64,000 nt of DNA from Pseudomonadota bacterium (GTDB lineage Bacteria > Pseudomonadota > Alphaproteobacteria > Sphingomonadales > Sphingomonadaceae), in contig JAEWEY010000006.1 of assembly GCA_023389105.1 (NCBI GenBank), forward strand, positions 40,120 through 104,119. The letters run 5' to 3'. A program made the position numbers and the translations under genes. Below, piece after piece: positions 52,953-58,401 of this stretch. A model generated the notes under the pieces. The model saw only the letters and a program-made list of their open reading frames with translations, did not search any database and was not told the origin of the DNA. The first letter of the stretch is position 1. Every line of letters begins with the position of its first letter.

Positions 52953-55658
52953 TTAAGGCGTGGCGGGTTCCGGCATTTCCGCGGACGCGATGCGATTGGG
53001 GAGCCGGGCGTGGATCGCGCCCAAGCGAACGATCGGCTTTTCAGGGCTCACTTTCAAATCCACGCCCAAGTCCCGCGCAATCTTGGCGGCTGCTGCCGAT
53101 GCTGCACTGATCCGGACCGAATAGCGGCCGTAGGCAACCCGTTCGAACAGGAAAAACCCATCGAAATCGGTGCGTGCGGTGTCGACCGTCTTCCCATTCA
53201 CGTCGACGAGTTCGATGTCCACGCCTTCGAAGGCTTGTTCGCCATTCTTGATCAGCGCGCCTTCGATATCACCACCGCCAACGAGCGCGATCTGTACATC
53301 GGCGGATACACCAGGGCGCGGAACGACCACCTGGATCGGTTTCTTGGGAACCAACATGGGGTCGTCGAGGGTCGTCGTGTCGACTCCCACGGGAATGGGC
53401 ATGTACGGGGTCAGCCCGCCAACGACGACCGACCCCTTCGCATCCGTTTTCCGCTCCACCTGACGAGCGCCGGTCGTGATCAGCACGTTCTTTTCAAGCG
53501 GCTCATCGCTGTCGCGGATGCCGTTATCGTTGAGGTCGCGGAAGACCGTGGCATGCACCATGCCGCCCTCAGCCAGGGGTCTGCGGGAGAGGGTGAAGCC
53601 GCTGCGAGGATCAAGGGAGAAATTAAGGTTGAAGCCGCCCGCGACCGAACCGTCGTTCGCCGCTTCGCCCGTCAAGGACAATGCAAATCGATCGAGCCGC
53701 ATGATATGCGAGATCCGTGCGCGGCCACGATGCTCGAGGCCGTCATACGCTAAGCCGCCCTCCCAATCGCTGCGTTCGCTCGCCGACCAATAGGCAGAGA
53801 GGTCGGCGCCGCGAAAACGGCCGGCCGGCTTTACGTCGAAGTCGACCTGACCGCGAACGCGAACATCGCCGATGCGACCGCTTCCAATGAGGCCGAGACG
53901 AACTTCGGGTGGCGGGCGAAAAGTGGCTCGATAGTCTTGCCGATAGCGTAGGTCGGCACTGAGGTTGAAACTGTCGATGCTCGCGGAAAGGCGGCTGGCT
54001 GCCTCGAGCGTTCTCGAGCCATCCGGGCGATCGGTGTAGTGGACCTCGCCGTGAAGGGGCAGAAAGATCTTGCCGACCTTCATCGGGACGTCCAGCGCCA
54101 GGCGGCCCTCCTTCACCGTCTGGGCCGGCCCACCACGCAAATGAAAATCGTTTGCGATAAGGGCGTCCGCGTTGACGTAGACGTTCTTGATCTTGCCTAG
54201 GATCTGCGCGTGCGCGGCTCTACCGCCGTTGGATTCTCTTGCGGCGCTGACTTCAACCAACGCGCCGGCGATGGACCGACGGACCGTCCCCTCGACGAAG
54301 GTCACGCGTTGATCGTTGATGAGCATGGCGCGGGCAAGCACGCCCACCGAAGTGCGCGCGTCGAGCCCGTGTTCGACTGAGACCGCGGCCTGCGCTCGCG
54401 GTGTCCCTGTCACGTCCGGCGGCTTCTGGAGCGTGACGATGTCCCTGCCCGGCTGGTTCGCGCCCAGCCAGTACCAGGTCTTGCCCTTCGGAATATTGTC
54501 CTGGCCGACGTTGAGCAGGTCCTCGCGTTCCTTGACCTGGCCCTGAGGACCATAGAGCACGACACGCAGGCGGTTCTCGCCATATAGCAGTTGGACGTCT
54601 TCGAAGACGTAGCGTTGCGAGCCATCGGATTTAGCGGAGCCGAGCAATTCGCCGTTGCGATAAAGCTCCGCTTCCCACCCCGTGGGCAAGTCGCCTTCCA
54701 CACGCGTGCGATCGAACGCGGTACGAGCCGTGAGTGGGCGGTTGGTGATGACCGCGCCGCGACCCGCGACCGCCGTTCCGGCAAGGCTGCTGTCGAAACC
54801 TTCGACATCACCGACCCCGAAATGCGTAGCTTTCAGCGGTCCGAGCAGGCCTGCATCCGGGTCGGAGCGAAATGCGCGTAACCGCAGGAGGTTCGGCTTA
54901 CCCCTCTCGGTGGTTGTGACCTGAGCGTCGTAGGACAGCCGCGCGATTTCTCCGGCGGCGTAGATCGAGCTCTGACGGTCGACCTTGACGCCGTCGTTGG
55001 CGCGATAGGTCACACCGCCGCTCACCACGAAATCGAGCGCTGGCGTTCGCCACATCCGATACGGCACCCGCACCTGCGGGAGCGCCTTGAGATCGAAGGC
55101 GGCCTTGTGGATGCGAGCCGCGCGTTGCTCCCGCTCCATGGCGAGCTCGACGGGAAGCTTCGCGTCGGACTGCAGCAGGAGGACCGAGCCCGACGTCATC
55201 GGCTTGACACCCACGCCGAACCATTTGGCCAAGGCCGTCGTTTGTACGCACCAGCCGTCAGGCGTTTCCCGGATCGTGCCCGGCGCGATGGGCTCCGCCT
55301 TGTGCCCCGGGTAAGTGGCCCGGAGCGCGGCGTAGTCGACGGTGATCTTGTTGCTTTCCTTGAAAGCCCATCCGGTCGCCTTCTTGGCGGTCAGATCGAT
55401 GCGCATCGGCACGTCGAGGGCCGTCAGAAAGTCGCCTAAGACGACACATGTGCCTTCAGGGGCATTGTAGGCGCGCACCGTGTCGCCCAGCCGAAGTGCG
55501 CGGATATTGACGTCGAGAATATATTGTTCGTCCGGGTCGGCGTGCCACGCCGCGGGAGCGCGGCTAGTGGGCAACTCGGTCGCAGACGCAGCAAGGCTGC
55601 CAGCGCCAAGCGCCAGCAGCAATGCTGCCTTGCGCAGCCACCAGGGGCCGCCGGCCAT
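52953..55658 (-). CDS. usher-like outer-membrane protein (about 901 aa) of the DUF4402 operon
   Basis: Start at MAGGPWWLRKAALLLALGAGSLAASA (signal peptide). The mid-region FGVGDVEGF...GRGAVITN...GWEAELYRNGELLG...YVFEDVQLLYGENRLRVVLYGPQGQ follows the usher plug-region pattern by eye. It is the last gene, after the chaperone. Confidence 0.65.
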   Translation of the reverse strand: MAGGPWWLRKAALLLALGAGSLAASATELPTSRAPAAWHADPDEQYILDVNIRALRLGDTVRAYNAPEGTCVVLGDFLTALDVPMRIDLTAKKATGWAFKESNKITVDYAALRATYPGHKAEPIAPGTIRETPDGWCVQTTALAKWFGVGVKPMTSGSVLLLQSDAKLPVELAMEREQRAARIHKAAFDLKALPQVRVPYRMWRTPALDFVVSGGVTYRANDGVKVDRQSSIYAAGEIARLSYDAQVTTTERGKPNLLRLRAFRSDPDAGLLGPLKATHFGVGDVEGFDSSLAGTAVAGRGAVITNRPLTARTAFDRTRVEGDLPTGWEAELYRNGELLGSAKSDGSQRYVFEDVQLLYGENRLRVVLYGPQGQVKEREDLLNVGQDNIPKGKTWYWLGANQPGRDIVTLQKPPDVTGTPRAQAAVSVEHGLDARTSVGVLARAMLINDQRVTFVEGTVRRSIAGALVEVSAARESNGGRAAHAQILGKIKNVYVNADALIANDFHLRGGPAQTVKEGRLALDVPMKVGKIFLPLHGEVHYTDRPDGSRTLEAASRLSASIDSFNLSADLRYRQDYRATFRPPPEVRLGLIGSGRIGDVRVRGQVDFDVKPAGRFRGADLSAYWSASERSDWEGGLAYDGLEHRGRARISHIMRLDRFALSLTGEAANDGSVAGGFNLNFSLDPRSGFTLSRRPLAEGGMVHATVFRDLNDNGIRDSDEPLEKNVLITTGARQVERKTDAKGSVVVGGLTPYMPIPVGVDTTTLDDPMLVPKKPIQVVVPRPGVSADVQIALVGGGDIEGALIKNGEQAFEGVDIELVDVNGKTVDTARTDFDGFFLFERVAYGRYSVRISAASAAAAKIARDLGVDLKVSPEKPIVRLGAIHARLPNRIASAEMPEPATP

Positions 55659-55686
55659 GGGTCGGGCCTCGCCCCGCCGCCCCGTC

Positions 55687-56508
55687 CTAGCGCAGCACCG
55701 CCTGGGTGGACGCAATCAGGTTCGATCCATCGTCGGTGATCTCACGATATTCGACCGTGACCGGCCCGGCGACCTTGCCGACGTACGCCTGCTGCACGGG
55801 AATGCTGACGTGGCGCTTGGCGACTTCGGTGTAGACGGCAACACCGCGCTGGATCGCGATCGGATCCTTGATGCCGGCCTTCAACACCCGGACTTCGCCG
55901 AACGTCGAGCGCGAGCCGGTGCGGGTCAGCTCAAGGCCCACGGCTTCGGCGCCGGCGTTCTTCTCCAGCTGGACGTCGGTGATGCCGGCGGTCGCCTGCA
56001 GCGTCCCCAGACGCACGATCACGGGGATGGTCACCCCGTAAACCGGCGTCAGCTTGAACTGAACGCCCTTTGGCTTCTCGGCCGGCTCGGTCACCGGCGT
56101 GGCCGCCGGAATGGCGCGGAACAGCAGGTGCACGCGATACTCGCCGTCGGGGATGCCAGCGCCCGGCCGCGCGGCAATGCGGATCGCCTGCGGCTCGCGC
56201 GGTGCCAGCGTCACCTTTCGCGGGGCATAGATGATCATGTCTTCGGCCAGCTTCTCGGCGGCGTTCGGCGTCTCGACGTCGTTGATCTCGCCCTTCTCGT
56301 TCATCCGACGGAATTGGATGGAGACGCGGTACGTGGCGACATCGTCGCCAATGTTGTTGAGCACCAGCTCAGCACCCTTGCGGCCGTCCATGACGATGCG
56401 GGTCGGCGCGACCAGAAGGTCGCCGACGCCGGCCTGTGCCGGTTCCGGAATTGCAACGATTGCCGCGCCCAACGCGGCGGCAAGAATGGACGAGGTCCAT
56501 TTGAACAT
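55687..56508 (-). CDS. PapD-like periplasmic pilus chaperone
   Basis: Start at MFKWTSSILAAALGAAIVAIPEPAQA. LLVAPTRIVMDGRKGAELVLNNIG...TYRVSIQ...PREPQAIRIA...GEYRVHLLFRAIP resembles the two-Ig-domain chaperone pattern. Confidence 0.7.
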   Translation of the reverse strand: MFKWTSSILAAALGAAIVAIPEPAQAGVGDLLVAPTRIVMDGRKGAELVLNNIGDDVATYRVSIQFRRMNEKGEINDVETPNAAEKLAEDMIIYAPRKVTLAPREPQAIRIAARPGAGIPDGEYRVHLLFRAIPAATPVTEPAEKPKGVQFKLTPVYGVTIPVIVRLGTLQATAGITDVQLEKNAGAEAVGLELTRTGSRSTFGEVRVLKAGIKDPIAIQRGVAVYTEVAKRHVSIPVQQAYVGKVAGPVTVEYREITDDGSNLIASTQAVLR

Positions 56509-57758: not shown

Positions 57759-57876
57759 TCACTTTCCCCCCACGTGCACCGAGCCTTGGCCGGTGAGGAC
57801 TAATTATCGTGAAACAGCAATTAACCAGAACCGCTTACGCCTTCGCTCAAGCTTATGGTTAATGCTTCATTAGCGT

Positions 57877-58401
57877 TTAGAGATACTCGACCGTGATCGG
57901 CAGCTCGCCGCGATACTGGCCGTCGACGTCACCGGAAACCAACAGGCGTCCACCGAAACGGAAACTGAGATTGCCGGCGGGGTCGAGCCGAGGAGCGGCC
58001 GGCGCATCGCTCGCCACGTCGTCCAGCGTCATCTGGCCGCCGGCTAGCGATCGCAACTCGATCCGCCGCGGTAGTTCGATGCGGACCGCCCGGTTCGGAT
58101 CACCGTGGACCGAAACCGTACCGACCATCGCCCGAGGCCCCATTGCCGCCACGATGCCCTCGGCCCCGCTACTCCCGTTCGGACGGAGGGTTACCGCGCC
58201 CATTCCACTACCCAAGAGGATCAGGCGGTCGAAGTTCAGATTGGTCTCGATCTGAAGTTGCAGATCGTCATCGCCGCCAGCCGTTGCGTCCACTGCCGTG
58301 GACGGCTGCTCGCATAACCGGCACTGCGCGTCCGACGATGTCGTCGGGAGCGCCCAAAGTGCCGCAACGGGCAGGAGTGCGAGGCTGAAAGCGATGCGCA
58401 T
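57877..58401 (-). CDS. DUF4402-like secreted subunit 1 (divergent, Cys-x2-Cys near the mature N-terminus)
   Basis: Signal peptide MRIAFSLALLPVAALWALP. LNFDRLIL...VGTVSVHG...LSFRFGGRLLVSGDVDGQYRGELPITVEYL follows the same strand pattern as the other two subunits. Confidence 0.6.
   Translation of the reverse strand: MRIAFSLALLPVAALWALPTTSSDAQCRLCEQPSTAVDATAGGDDDLQLQIETNLNFDRLILLGSGMGAVTLRPNGSSGAEGIVAAMGPRAMVGTVSVHGDPNRAVRIELPRRIELRSLAGGQMTLDDVASDAPAAPRLDPAGNLSFRFGGRLLVSGDVDGQYRGELPITVEYL

Follow-up and report, generated by a model that had tools for sequence, protein, structure and literature searches.

Three genes for proteins of the uncharacterised Pfam family DUF4402, followed by the genes for a candidate periplasmic chaperone and a large candidate outer-membrane protein, raise the question whether DUF4402 proteins are the cargo of a chaperone-usher (CU) system. 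The cluster lies within a stretch of 64,000 nucleotides from a member of the Sphingomonadaceae (assembly GCA_023389105.1, contig JAEWEY010000006.1, positions 40,120 to 104,119), which is referred to as the window; window coordinates are used throughout. An earlier note, made from the sequence without database searches, had put forward a CU-like operon for a surface fibre. The results presented here make it quite probable that this operon encodes a CU system for secretion and assembly in full, with DUF4402 proteins as its cargo.

Gene order and export signals

Five open reading frames (ORFs) of the same orientation occupy positions 52953-58401 of the minus strand, just as the earlier note had stated. 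They were confirmed at these coordinates, and the public annotation of the identical sequence, from which the start codons were adopted, concurs. The products comprise 174, 165 and 167 amino acids (aa) for the three subunits, termed sub1, sub2 and sub3 in gene order, 273 aa for the chaperone and 901 aa for the usher. With the adopted starts, the intergenic gaps amount to 118 (sub1-sub2), 146 (sub2-sub3), 102 and 28 nt. A range of 28-118 nt had been given earlier; it holds for three of these distances and differs for sub2-sub3 because that value depends on the choice of the sub3 start. Beyond the adopted starts, the ORFs have upper limits at 57180 for sub3 (corresponding to 189 aa), 56586 for the chaperone and 55715 for the usher. 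The secretion signal claimed for every product was recovered: judged by eye from the translations, all five proteins have a typical Sec signal peptide at the N-terminus (for example MKRVLAAVAAFAAVTLAATPAVA followed by VSPP in sub2 and MFKWTSSILAAALGAAIVAIPEPAQA followed by GVGD in the chaperone). The five ORFs are real genes and not chance ORFs: homologues of each number in the hundreds to thousands, and their synteny is conserved.

The 901-aa protein is predicted to be an usher at fold level

By sequence, just a C-terminal domain of the SdrD_B/CarboxypepD_reg type is apparent in the 901-aa protein (Pfam SdrD_B, E 1.8e-10). The Pfam Usher model (PF00577) aligns with 46 residues at 11.8 bits (E 0.11) and does not reach its threshold of 27.1 bits; among 52 family members just two are matched, with E 0.003. 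A profile built from 70 sequences of the family did not find an usher in the PDB, and NCBIfam gave nothing useful. Structure prediction was needed because sequence searches of the PDB found nothing relevant for either the large protein or the chaperone. The family is extensive (4,619 clusters at 50% identity in an exhaustive search with E<=1e-3), and 70 diverse members were aligned as input for AlphaFold2.

The resulting model has a predicted local distance difference test value (pLDDT) of 91.5 and a predicted template modelling score (pTM) of 0.79. When it was compared with the PDB by Foldseek, ranks 1-18 were all taken by FimD or PapC (E 3.4e-30 to 6e-14), with target TM-scores of 0.42-0.64, sequence identities of 10-14% and 740-930 aligned columns for full-length entries. 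The next matches are unrelated and at least four orders of magnitude weaker (E 5.6e-10 or weaker). The barrel matches the translocation pores of PapC and FimD (2vqi, 3ohn, 3fip).

The layout of the strands, taken from the one-dimensional DSSP string of the model and not from its three-dimensional coordinates, comprises an N-terminal domain, a helix (aa 169-186), six barrel strands (aa 203-305), a six-stranded insert, 18 further barrel strands (aa 394-683) and two C-terminal beta-sandwiches. This adds up to a barrel of 24 strands with a plug-like insert between strands 6 and 7, that is, in the right place for the plug pattern that the earlier note had recognized in the central region. The insert (aa 314-384) holds the most conserved block of the family, GWE.ELYRNG..L....DGRY.F.DV.L..G.N...V.YGPQGQ, with G327, W328, E331-N335 and G370-Q374 as conserved columns. 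The profiles were also aligned by hhalign with single sequences of FimC, FimD, FimA, EcpA, CsuA/B and Caf1; these alignments are local and of low probability and are used here for register and motifs, not as evidence of homology. In this comparison, aa 736-790 fall on residues 737-790 of FimD (E 0.066). The second C-terminal domain has the transthyretin-like SdrD_B/CarboxypepD_reg fold. With a 24-strand barrel, a plug and N- and C-terminal domains, the 901-aa protein is by its predicted structure an usher at fold level, as had been claimed.

Proteins of this family are named 'collagen binding domain-containing protein' or 'carboxypeptidase regulatory-like domain-containing protein' by NCBI/PGAP. 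If these names were correct, the protein would be related to collagen-binding adhesins or carboxypeptidases and no secretion system would be present, a reading with which the SdrD_B match would agree. The names stem from the C-terminal SdrD_B/CarboxypepD_reg domain, a beta-sandwich of about 60 residues (aa 798-859 of 901), whereas the other approximately 800 residues model confidently as an usher. The Foldseek result effectively refutes the database names as a description of the whole protein, and we consider this explanation hardly tenable.

Many homologues of the usher are considerably longer (1200-1480 aa; P0432, P0461, P0468, P0509, P0528 and others). Most of these carry large additional N-terminal regions, so that the part resembling an usher begins 100-580 residues into the protein; P0432 is extended C-terminally instead. 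A SPOR domain is present in five of 52 usher homologues, and one homologue of 1359 aa combines SPOR with LysM. Genes for SPOR-domain proteins also flank the cluster of Pseudoalteromonas. Some variants may thus be connected with peptidoglycan.

The chaperone

The 273-aa window protein has no match of its own to Pfam, including PapD, or to PDB sequences (phmmer and profile searches). It belongs to a large family: more than 4,400 of 8,000 scored clusters at 90% identity match, and relatives occur in at least 544 GTDB species genomes. The PapD_N model is touched at E<=1 by 17 of 26 close homologues, and its gathering score of 23 is passed by the homologues from Polaromonas (25.3 bits) and Pseudoalteromonas (23.2 bits), the former of which is labelled 'fimbria/pilus periplasmic chaperone' in RefSeq.

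The AlphaFold2 model consists of two beta-sandwich domains. Its best Foldseek matches are almost exclusively CU chaperones, namely CsuC, Caf1M, DraB, CupB2, CfaA, SafB, FimC, PapD, EcpB and FaeE, with E 1e-8 to 8e-6 over 231-271 aligned columns; they extend over both domains and come from every known clade. The earlier assignment as PapD-like is thus upheld by the model, which predicts a two-domain, Ig-like chaperone of the PapD type at fold level.

In the alignment with E. coli FimC (E 0.0076, probability 5%), DLLVAPTR lies on GVALGATR, so that Arg37 falls on Arg8 of FimC, and GEYRVHLLFRAIP lies on ESLFWMNVKAIP, the F1 strand of FimC. Arg37 (in APTR) and Arg166, located in the putative G1 strand (IPVIVR), are invariant in a divergent alignment. 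By its position, Arg166 may correspond to Lys112 in the basic pair of the PapD cleft. Between the AIP motif of the F1 strand and the invariant Arg of the putative G1 strand there are 32 aa (Pro134 to Arg166), vs 21 aa from Pro127 to Lys148 of FimC, which makes the F1-G1 distance approximately 11 residues greater. The stretch aa 134-166 (window approximately 56011-56109, minus strand) contains two segments with pLDDT <50 (aa 136-138 and aa 142-155). Tentatively, the long spacing hints at a system like those with FGL (F1-G1 long) chaperones, which make thin, flexible polymers.

The DUF4402 subunits

All three subunits match Pfam DUF4402 (PF14352), with 76.5 bits for sub1, 59 for sub2 and 54 for sub3 at a gathering threshold of 25.2 bits, in agreement with the family named in the earlier note. 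The Pfam models Fimbrial, SCPU, MatB and Fimbrial_CS1 gave no match at E<=1 in 53 DUF4402 proteins (37 + 16), so that the statement that the subunits are neither classical fimbrial nor SCPU proteins stands as well. DUF4402 profiles made from a close and from a diverse set of sequences found no credible match in the PDB; the pilins of the Csu, CupE, Caf1 and Ecp systems are among the structures not matched. The environmental donor-strand fibrils of TLP-1 (PMC11494351) were considered as a possible DUF4402 fibre, and no sequence link was obtained.

The C-terminal strand described earlier was located in the sequences: NFSIGGSVT(I/L)(S/N)STT..G.Y.G.FNVTADYQ is found in sub2 and sub3, and sub1 ends with LPITVEYL. 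In the C-terminus DGVYTGQFNVTADYQ glycine stands at position -14 and tyrosine is penultimate. For sub2, which has 641 homologues, the motif reads G(-14)...Y(-2)Q and is preceded by a pair of cysteines (Cys75/Cys84). The same arrangement, Gly at -14, a penultimate Tyr and then Gln, is found at the C-termini of FimA and PapA. Aligned by hhalign, the subunit C-terminus G.Y.G...VT..Y(Q) is end-flush with those of EcpA, CsuA/B and Caf1, at E values that are not significant (0.014-0.08); the CsuA/B and Caf1 sequences used were checked against the PDB.

An alternating-hydrophobic segment resembling a donor strand had been claimed for all three subunits, and the segment quoted, ATAKILRPLTLEAKQNLDFG, was located. 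The claim is correct for sub2 (ATAKILRPLTLE) and sub3 (AAVNASANKPLVLS) and does not hold for sub1. The pattern AtAtA.I.kPLtLt, an alternation of small and hydrophobic residues followed by proline, is kept in orthologues of the sub2 and sub3 types and missing from those of the sub1 type. In sub2 the segment directly precedes the Pfam DUF4402 match, which begins at aa 40. This conservation and position suggest that the ATAKILRP segment of sub2 acts as a donor strand.

In place of the alternating segment, sub1 and its orthologues possess QCRLCEQP...ATAGGDDD. The first gene forms a separate orthogroup (70 related loci), in which at least 80% of the mature proteins begin with QCRLC; a variable acidic or glycine-rich linker follows (aa 26-45 in sub1 for both elements). 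The C-terminus reads G.YRGELPITVEYL in sub1 and G.YRGDLPITVEYL in the orthogroup. A subunit that offers an acceptor side and lacks a donor strand can occupy only the distal tip position; judged from these sequence features, sub1 therefore looks like a tip or initiator subunit. We propose that sub2 is the major repeating subunit and that sub3, whose gene is missing in 28 of 70 loci and which is thus absent from two-subunit operons, is an optional second subunit able to polymerise.

QCRLC constitutes a CxxC motif, which might form a disulfide, bind metal or serve as a surface-contact module.

A terminator behind the second subunit gene

The internal terminator that the earlier note had placed after one subunit gene corresponds to a GC-rich stem of 12 bp with a U-run at about 57199-57229 of the minus strand. 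Of 70 related loci, 59 have a hairpin with a free energy of -15 kcal/mol or lower downstream of the second subunit gene. Equivalent hairpins after the first or the third subunit gene were present in at most five of 28-42 cases. When the stems are aligned, a consensus of 13 pairs emerges, seven of which show compensatory changes. Since a generic promoter and terminator scan was by itself not above shuffled sequence, the claim rests on this conservation across loci. Where an operon has two subunit genes, the hairpin separates the second of them from the chaperone gene. By analogy, its position is that of the classic arrangement by which the major pilin would be over-produced relative to the assembly genes, and it points to sub2 as the major subunit.

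Conservation and distribution of the operon

Among the best 80 genome loci (Sphingomicrobium/Sphingomonas), counted where the contig reaches far enough, the order of two to three DUF4402 genes, chaperone gene and usher gene on a single strand was found in every case. The subunit, chaperone and usher genes thus form a clustered operon. The locus is embedded in the same surroundings in related loci with sufficient flanking sequence: one flank carries a gene for PBP1A, a class A penicillin-binding protein, and the other carries genes for a Zn-ribbon protein and FtsE/FtsX. As the flanks are conserved, this is a vertically inherited core locus despite the nearby gene for tRNA-Leu(GAG), and it sits on the core chromosome conserved among Sphingomicrobium-like Sphingomonadaceae. 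For the same reason, a genomic island at the tRNA-Leu gene next to it was considered and rejected.

The architecture recurs at usher identities of 23-39% in the loci L081 and L082, on the metagenome contig L090, on plasmid 2 of Polaromonas sp. JS666 (L084; NC_007950.1, 62268-74691) and in Pseudoalteromonas xiamenensis (L085; NZ_CP099918.1). The co-occurrence in other genomes on which the earlier proposal depended hence extends to distant Beta- and Gammaproteobacteria. Within the same range of usher identity, the four DUF4402 matches on plasmid records apart from that of the query, with Sphingopyxis, Novosphingobium and Polaromonas E5S as carriers, are all situated 1.1-2.3 kb upstream of a gene for an usher homologue.

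The cluster on the conjugative Polaromonas plasmid lies between two transposase genes of the IS6 family, a bracketing which suggests that the system is mobile in the manner of a composite transposon. In L081, genes for a GerE-type response regulator and a histidine-kinase-like protein (HATPase_c) are inserted between two DUF4402 genes (2884-4262), possibly as a dedicated regulator; the window operon is without an adjacent regulator gene. The locus L091 (GCA_016082375.1, LJYU01000028.1, 529848-544685) encodes a distant usher homologue of 945 aa with a GGDEF gene upstream on the opposite strand.

Evidence for and against a DUF4402 polymer

Several observations weigh against a CU system with DUF4402 cargo. 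Profile searches of the PDB detect neither the usher nor the chaperone. The model of the chaperone is only moderate (pLDDT 67.8, pTM 0.43). Between DUF4402 proteins and known pilins, hhalign yields no significant similarity (E 0.014-0.24, probability <5%), and incomplete Ig folds closed by a donor strand are suggested at the level of motifs. Furthermore, the usher homologue of L091 is without a subunit or chaperone gene within 6 kb.

The lack of a match between the DUF4402 profile and any solved pilin could also be accommodated if an usher-like barrel exported or displayed DUF4402 monomers and polymerisation did not take place. The conserved alternating segment upstream of the Pfam domain match argues against such monomers. 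A C-terminal motif of the pilin type and two to three paralogous subunits per operon would both be expected of a polymer, and an attenuator after one of the subunit genes implies a stoichiometric excess of that subunit. To our knowledge, there is no CU system that exports monomers. Export without polymerisation thus appears very improbable, and assembly of DUF4402 subunits into a polymer remains the preferred reading.

Comparison with known chaperone-usher systems

Archaic sigma pili, the thin fibres made by environmental and biofilm bacteria, resemble the DUF4402 system in several respects. Csu of Acinetobacter baumannii (CsuA/B-A-B-C-D-E) and CupE of Pseudomonas aeruginosa share the order subunits, chaperone, usher as well as small single-domain subunits with an N-terminal strand segment and a C-terminus of the type ...G.Y....V.V.(Y/F), and the chaperone finds its best fold match in CsuC. 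On the other hand, the subunits are DUF4402 and not SCPU (PF05229) proteins, the usher is missed by Pfam Usher, and a single-domain subunit with QCRLC takes the place of a two-domain tip adhesin like CsuE. Aligned with CsuA/B, the subunit profile covers the C-terminal 29 residues only (E 0.065).

The E. coli common pilus (ECP; EcpA/MatB, EcpB, EcpC, EcpD, EcpE) comes into play through the automatic JGI name 'Mat/Ecp fimbriae major subunit', which some DUF4402 homologues carry, and through EcpB, which is among the fold matches of the chaperone. The operon studied here differs from ECP in that it has a single chaperone, no large tip adhesin of the EcpD type and no match to MatB (PF16449), the family of the ECP/Mat major subunit.

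The operons could accordingly be merely a very divergent branch of one of these named clades, archaic sigma (Csu-CupE) or ECP/Mat. Apart from the CsuC match and the JGI label, this explanation can draw on the best hhalign match of the subunit profile, the C-terminus of EcpA, which is not significant (E 0.014) and vanishes with a more diverse profile, and on an L.FG motif after the first strand of the subunits, which resembles SCPU proteins. Against it stand the lack of SCPU, MatB, Fimbrial and Fimbrial_CS1 matches at E<=1 in the 53 DUF4402 scans and the rarity of Pfam Usher matches in the usher family; Pfam Usher detects the ushers of the named clades. In addition, the Foldseek scores of CsuC, Caf1M, CfaA and FimC lie within approximately one order of magnitude and are thus so similar that no clade is clearly preferred. 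A place within a named clade is unlikely in our view.

The likeness to type 1 and P pili (FimACDFGH, Pap) resides in the assembly machinery. The usher fold is similar to that of FimD and PapC across barrel, plug and C-terminal domains, the motif of the Arg8 type and the F1 strand of the chaperone can be aligned, and in both cases an attenuator follows the gene for the major subunit. Differences are the usher identity of just 10-14%, the SdrD_B/transthyretin type of the last usher domain, and the lack of Fimbrial (PF00419) subunits, which define classical fimbriae, and of a two-domain lectin adhesin. When the subunit profile was compared with FimA by hhalign, the signal peptide alone aligned.

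FGL polyadhesins and capsules (Caf1-Caf1M-Caf1A; Afa/Dr) resemble the DUF4402 system in their minimal operons with one or two single-domain subunits and in the long F1-G1 region of the chaperone. The N-terminal donor strand ...ATATLVEPARITLTY and the C-terminus GKYTDAVTVTVSNQ of Caf1 are patterned like ...ATAKILRPLTLEA and GVYTGQFNVTADYQ of sub2. DraD and AfaD provide a precedent for a tip subunit that consists of one domain and lacks a donor strand. Unlike the FGL systems, to which there is no significant sequence similarity, the DUF4402 system has an usher outside Pfam Usher and environmental Alphaproteobacteria as hosts.

This likeness bears the possibility that the same machinery produces an amorphous capsule- or coat-like polymer instead of discrete pili, comparable to the Caf1 F1 capsule of Yersinia pestis or the protein U spore coat of Myxococcus. 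A simple operon in which all subunits are single-domain proteins, the elongated F1-G1 spacing, which recalls FGL chaperones of thin fibres and capsules, and the presence of Caf1M among the best chaperone fold matches would all be compatible with a capsule. A distinct tip-like subunit and the arrangement of major and minor subunits fit an ordered fibre better, and the FGL-like reading derives from one low-probability alignment and a poorly predicted loop (aa 142-155). An amorphous polymer is therefore regarded as quite unlikely; the product is likely a thin adhesive or biofilm fibre.

Proposed assembly pathway

A pathway for assembly of the DUF4402 fibre can be proposed by combining the predicted structures with the mechanism of the known systems. 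All five products would be exported by Sec. In the periplasm, the two-domain chaperone would capture an unfolded DUF4402 subunit and lend it a strand that completes the subunit fold, with the pair Arg37/Arg166 possibly anchoring the C-terminal carboxylate of the subunit next to its G(-14)...Y(-2) motif. Chaperone-subunit complexes would then dock on the 901-aa usher, predicted to be a plug-gated barrel of 24 strands with an N-terminal and two C-terminal domains. At the usher, the ATAKILRP-type segment of the incoming subunit may displace the chaperone strand from the previous one by donor-strand exchange, and the linear polymer would be threaded via the barrel to the cell surface. Incorporated first, sub1 would end up at the distal tip, and extension would proceed with sub2 (and sub3). 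The terminator after the sub2 gene would raise the mRNA dose of sub2 over that of the downstream genes.

Classification and significance

A published description of a fibre made from DUF4402 proteins was not found, as the earlier note had supposed. In the full text of approximately 8 million papers and preprints, a corpus that does not extend to subscription-only literature, no papers were retrieved for DUF4402, PF14352 or IPR025514, and searches combining chaperone-usher with Sphingomonas or usher with carboxypeptidase regulatory-like, as well as searches for new clades, revealed no description of the system. Some automatic labels (JGI 'PapD', PGAP 'fimbria/pilus periplasmic chaperone') already give a hint of the chaperone, and the idea could therefore be inferred from existing annotation, though the usher went unrecognised.

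CU pili are catalogued mainly by usher sequence, and their classification into clades with Greek letters (alpha, beta, gamma, kappa, pi and sigma) rests on Pfam Usher. The system described here fits the fold-level definitions of chaperone and usher but fails the definitions by sequence family (Usher PF00577, Fimbrial, SCPU, MatB). For the further step, that the DUF4402 operons constitute an unclassified major clade of CU systems, we regard the case as evenly balanced; such a clade would be characterized by an usher missed by Pfam Usher, abundance in environmental Proteobacteria, a core-chromosomal location in Sphingomicrobium-like bacteria with occasional occurrence on plasmids, and a CxxC module at the tip that replaces the donor strand.

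Since this usher family is missed by sequence models, surveys undercount CU fibres, and many soil and aquatic Proteobacteria that are thought to be without them may have them. DUF4402 gains a concrete and testable function, that of a pilin, and the unusual tip subunit with its QCRLC motif deserves attention. Culturable hosts are available with Sphingomonas hankyongi SE220, S. daechungensis JCM 17887, S. alba SE158 and S. rhizophila KACC 19189. A comparison of this deeply divergent usher and chaperone with FimD and FimC would, should the fibre be confirmed, reveal which features of donor-strand-exchange catalysis are truly universal.

Genomic setting and feature coordinates

The coordinates of the operon genes, the predicted usher domains and further elements are compiled in Table 1.

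Table 1. Features of the DUF4402 operon and its immediate vicinity in the window
Feature	Position	Strand	Remarks
sub1, DUF4402 subunit, putative tip/initiator	57877..58401	-	174 aa; Pfam DUF4402 E 4e-21
sub2, DUF4402 subunit, putative major fibre subunit	57261..57758	-	165 aa; Pfam DUF4402 E 9.6e-16
Candidate donor strand of sub2, ANATAKILRP, aa 30-39	57642..57671	-	conserved in orthologues; putative role
Intrinsic terminator/attenuator after sub2	57199..57229	-	12-bp stem GGAAGGGCCGCC/GGCGGCCCUUUU into U-run; cross-locus conservation
sub3, DUF4402 subunit, could polymerise	56611..57114	-	167 aa; Pfam DUF4402 E 3.6e-14
PapD-like periplasmic chaperone, two predicted Ig-like domains	55687..56508	-	273 aa; AlphaFold2 and Foldseek
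Predicted outer-membrane usher	52953..55658	-	901 aa; AlphaFold2 and Foldseek
Predicted usher N-terminal periplasmic domain, aa 45-163	55170..55526	-	DSSP layout of the model
Predicted usher beta-barrel, aa 203-683	53610..55052	-	DSSP strand count and Foldseek
Predicted usher plug-like beta-sandwich, aa 314-384	54507..54719	-	DSSP and conserved columns
Predicted usher C-terminal domains 1 (aa 699-778) and 2 (aa 785-884)	53007..53564	-	DSSP, Pfam SdrD_B, hhalign
tRNA-Leu(GAG)	52852-52938	+	convergent to the operon, 14 nt past the end of the usher gene

The G+C content of the window is about 65% all along, and its closest named relatives are genomes of Sphingomicrobium and Sphingomonas. The operon is flanked by ftsE/ftsX and a gene for a Zn-ribbon membrane protein of 313 aa on one side (49878-52463) and by the gene for the class A penicillin-binding protein on the other (58509-60650). 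The latter is oriented divergently from the operon, and its start codon and that of sub1 are just 107 nt apart.

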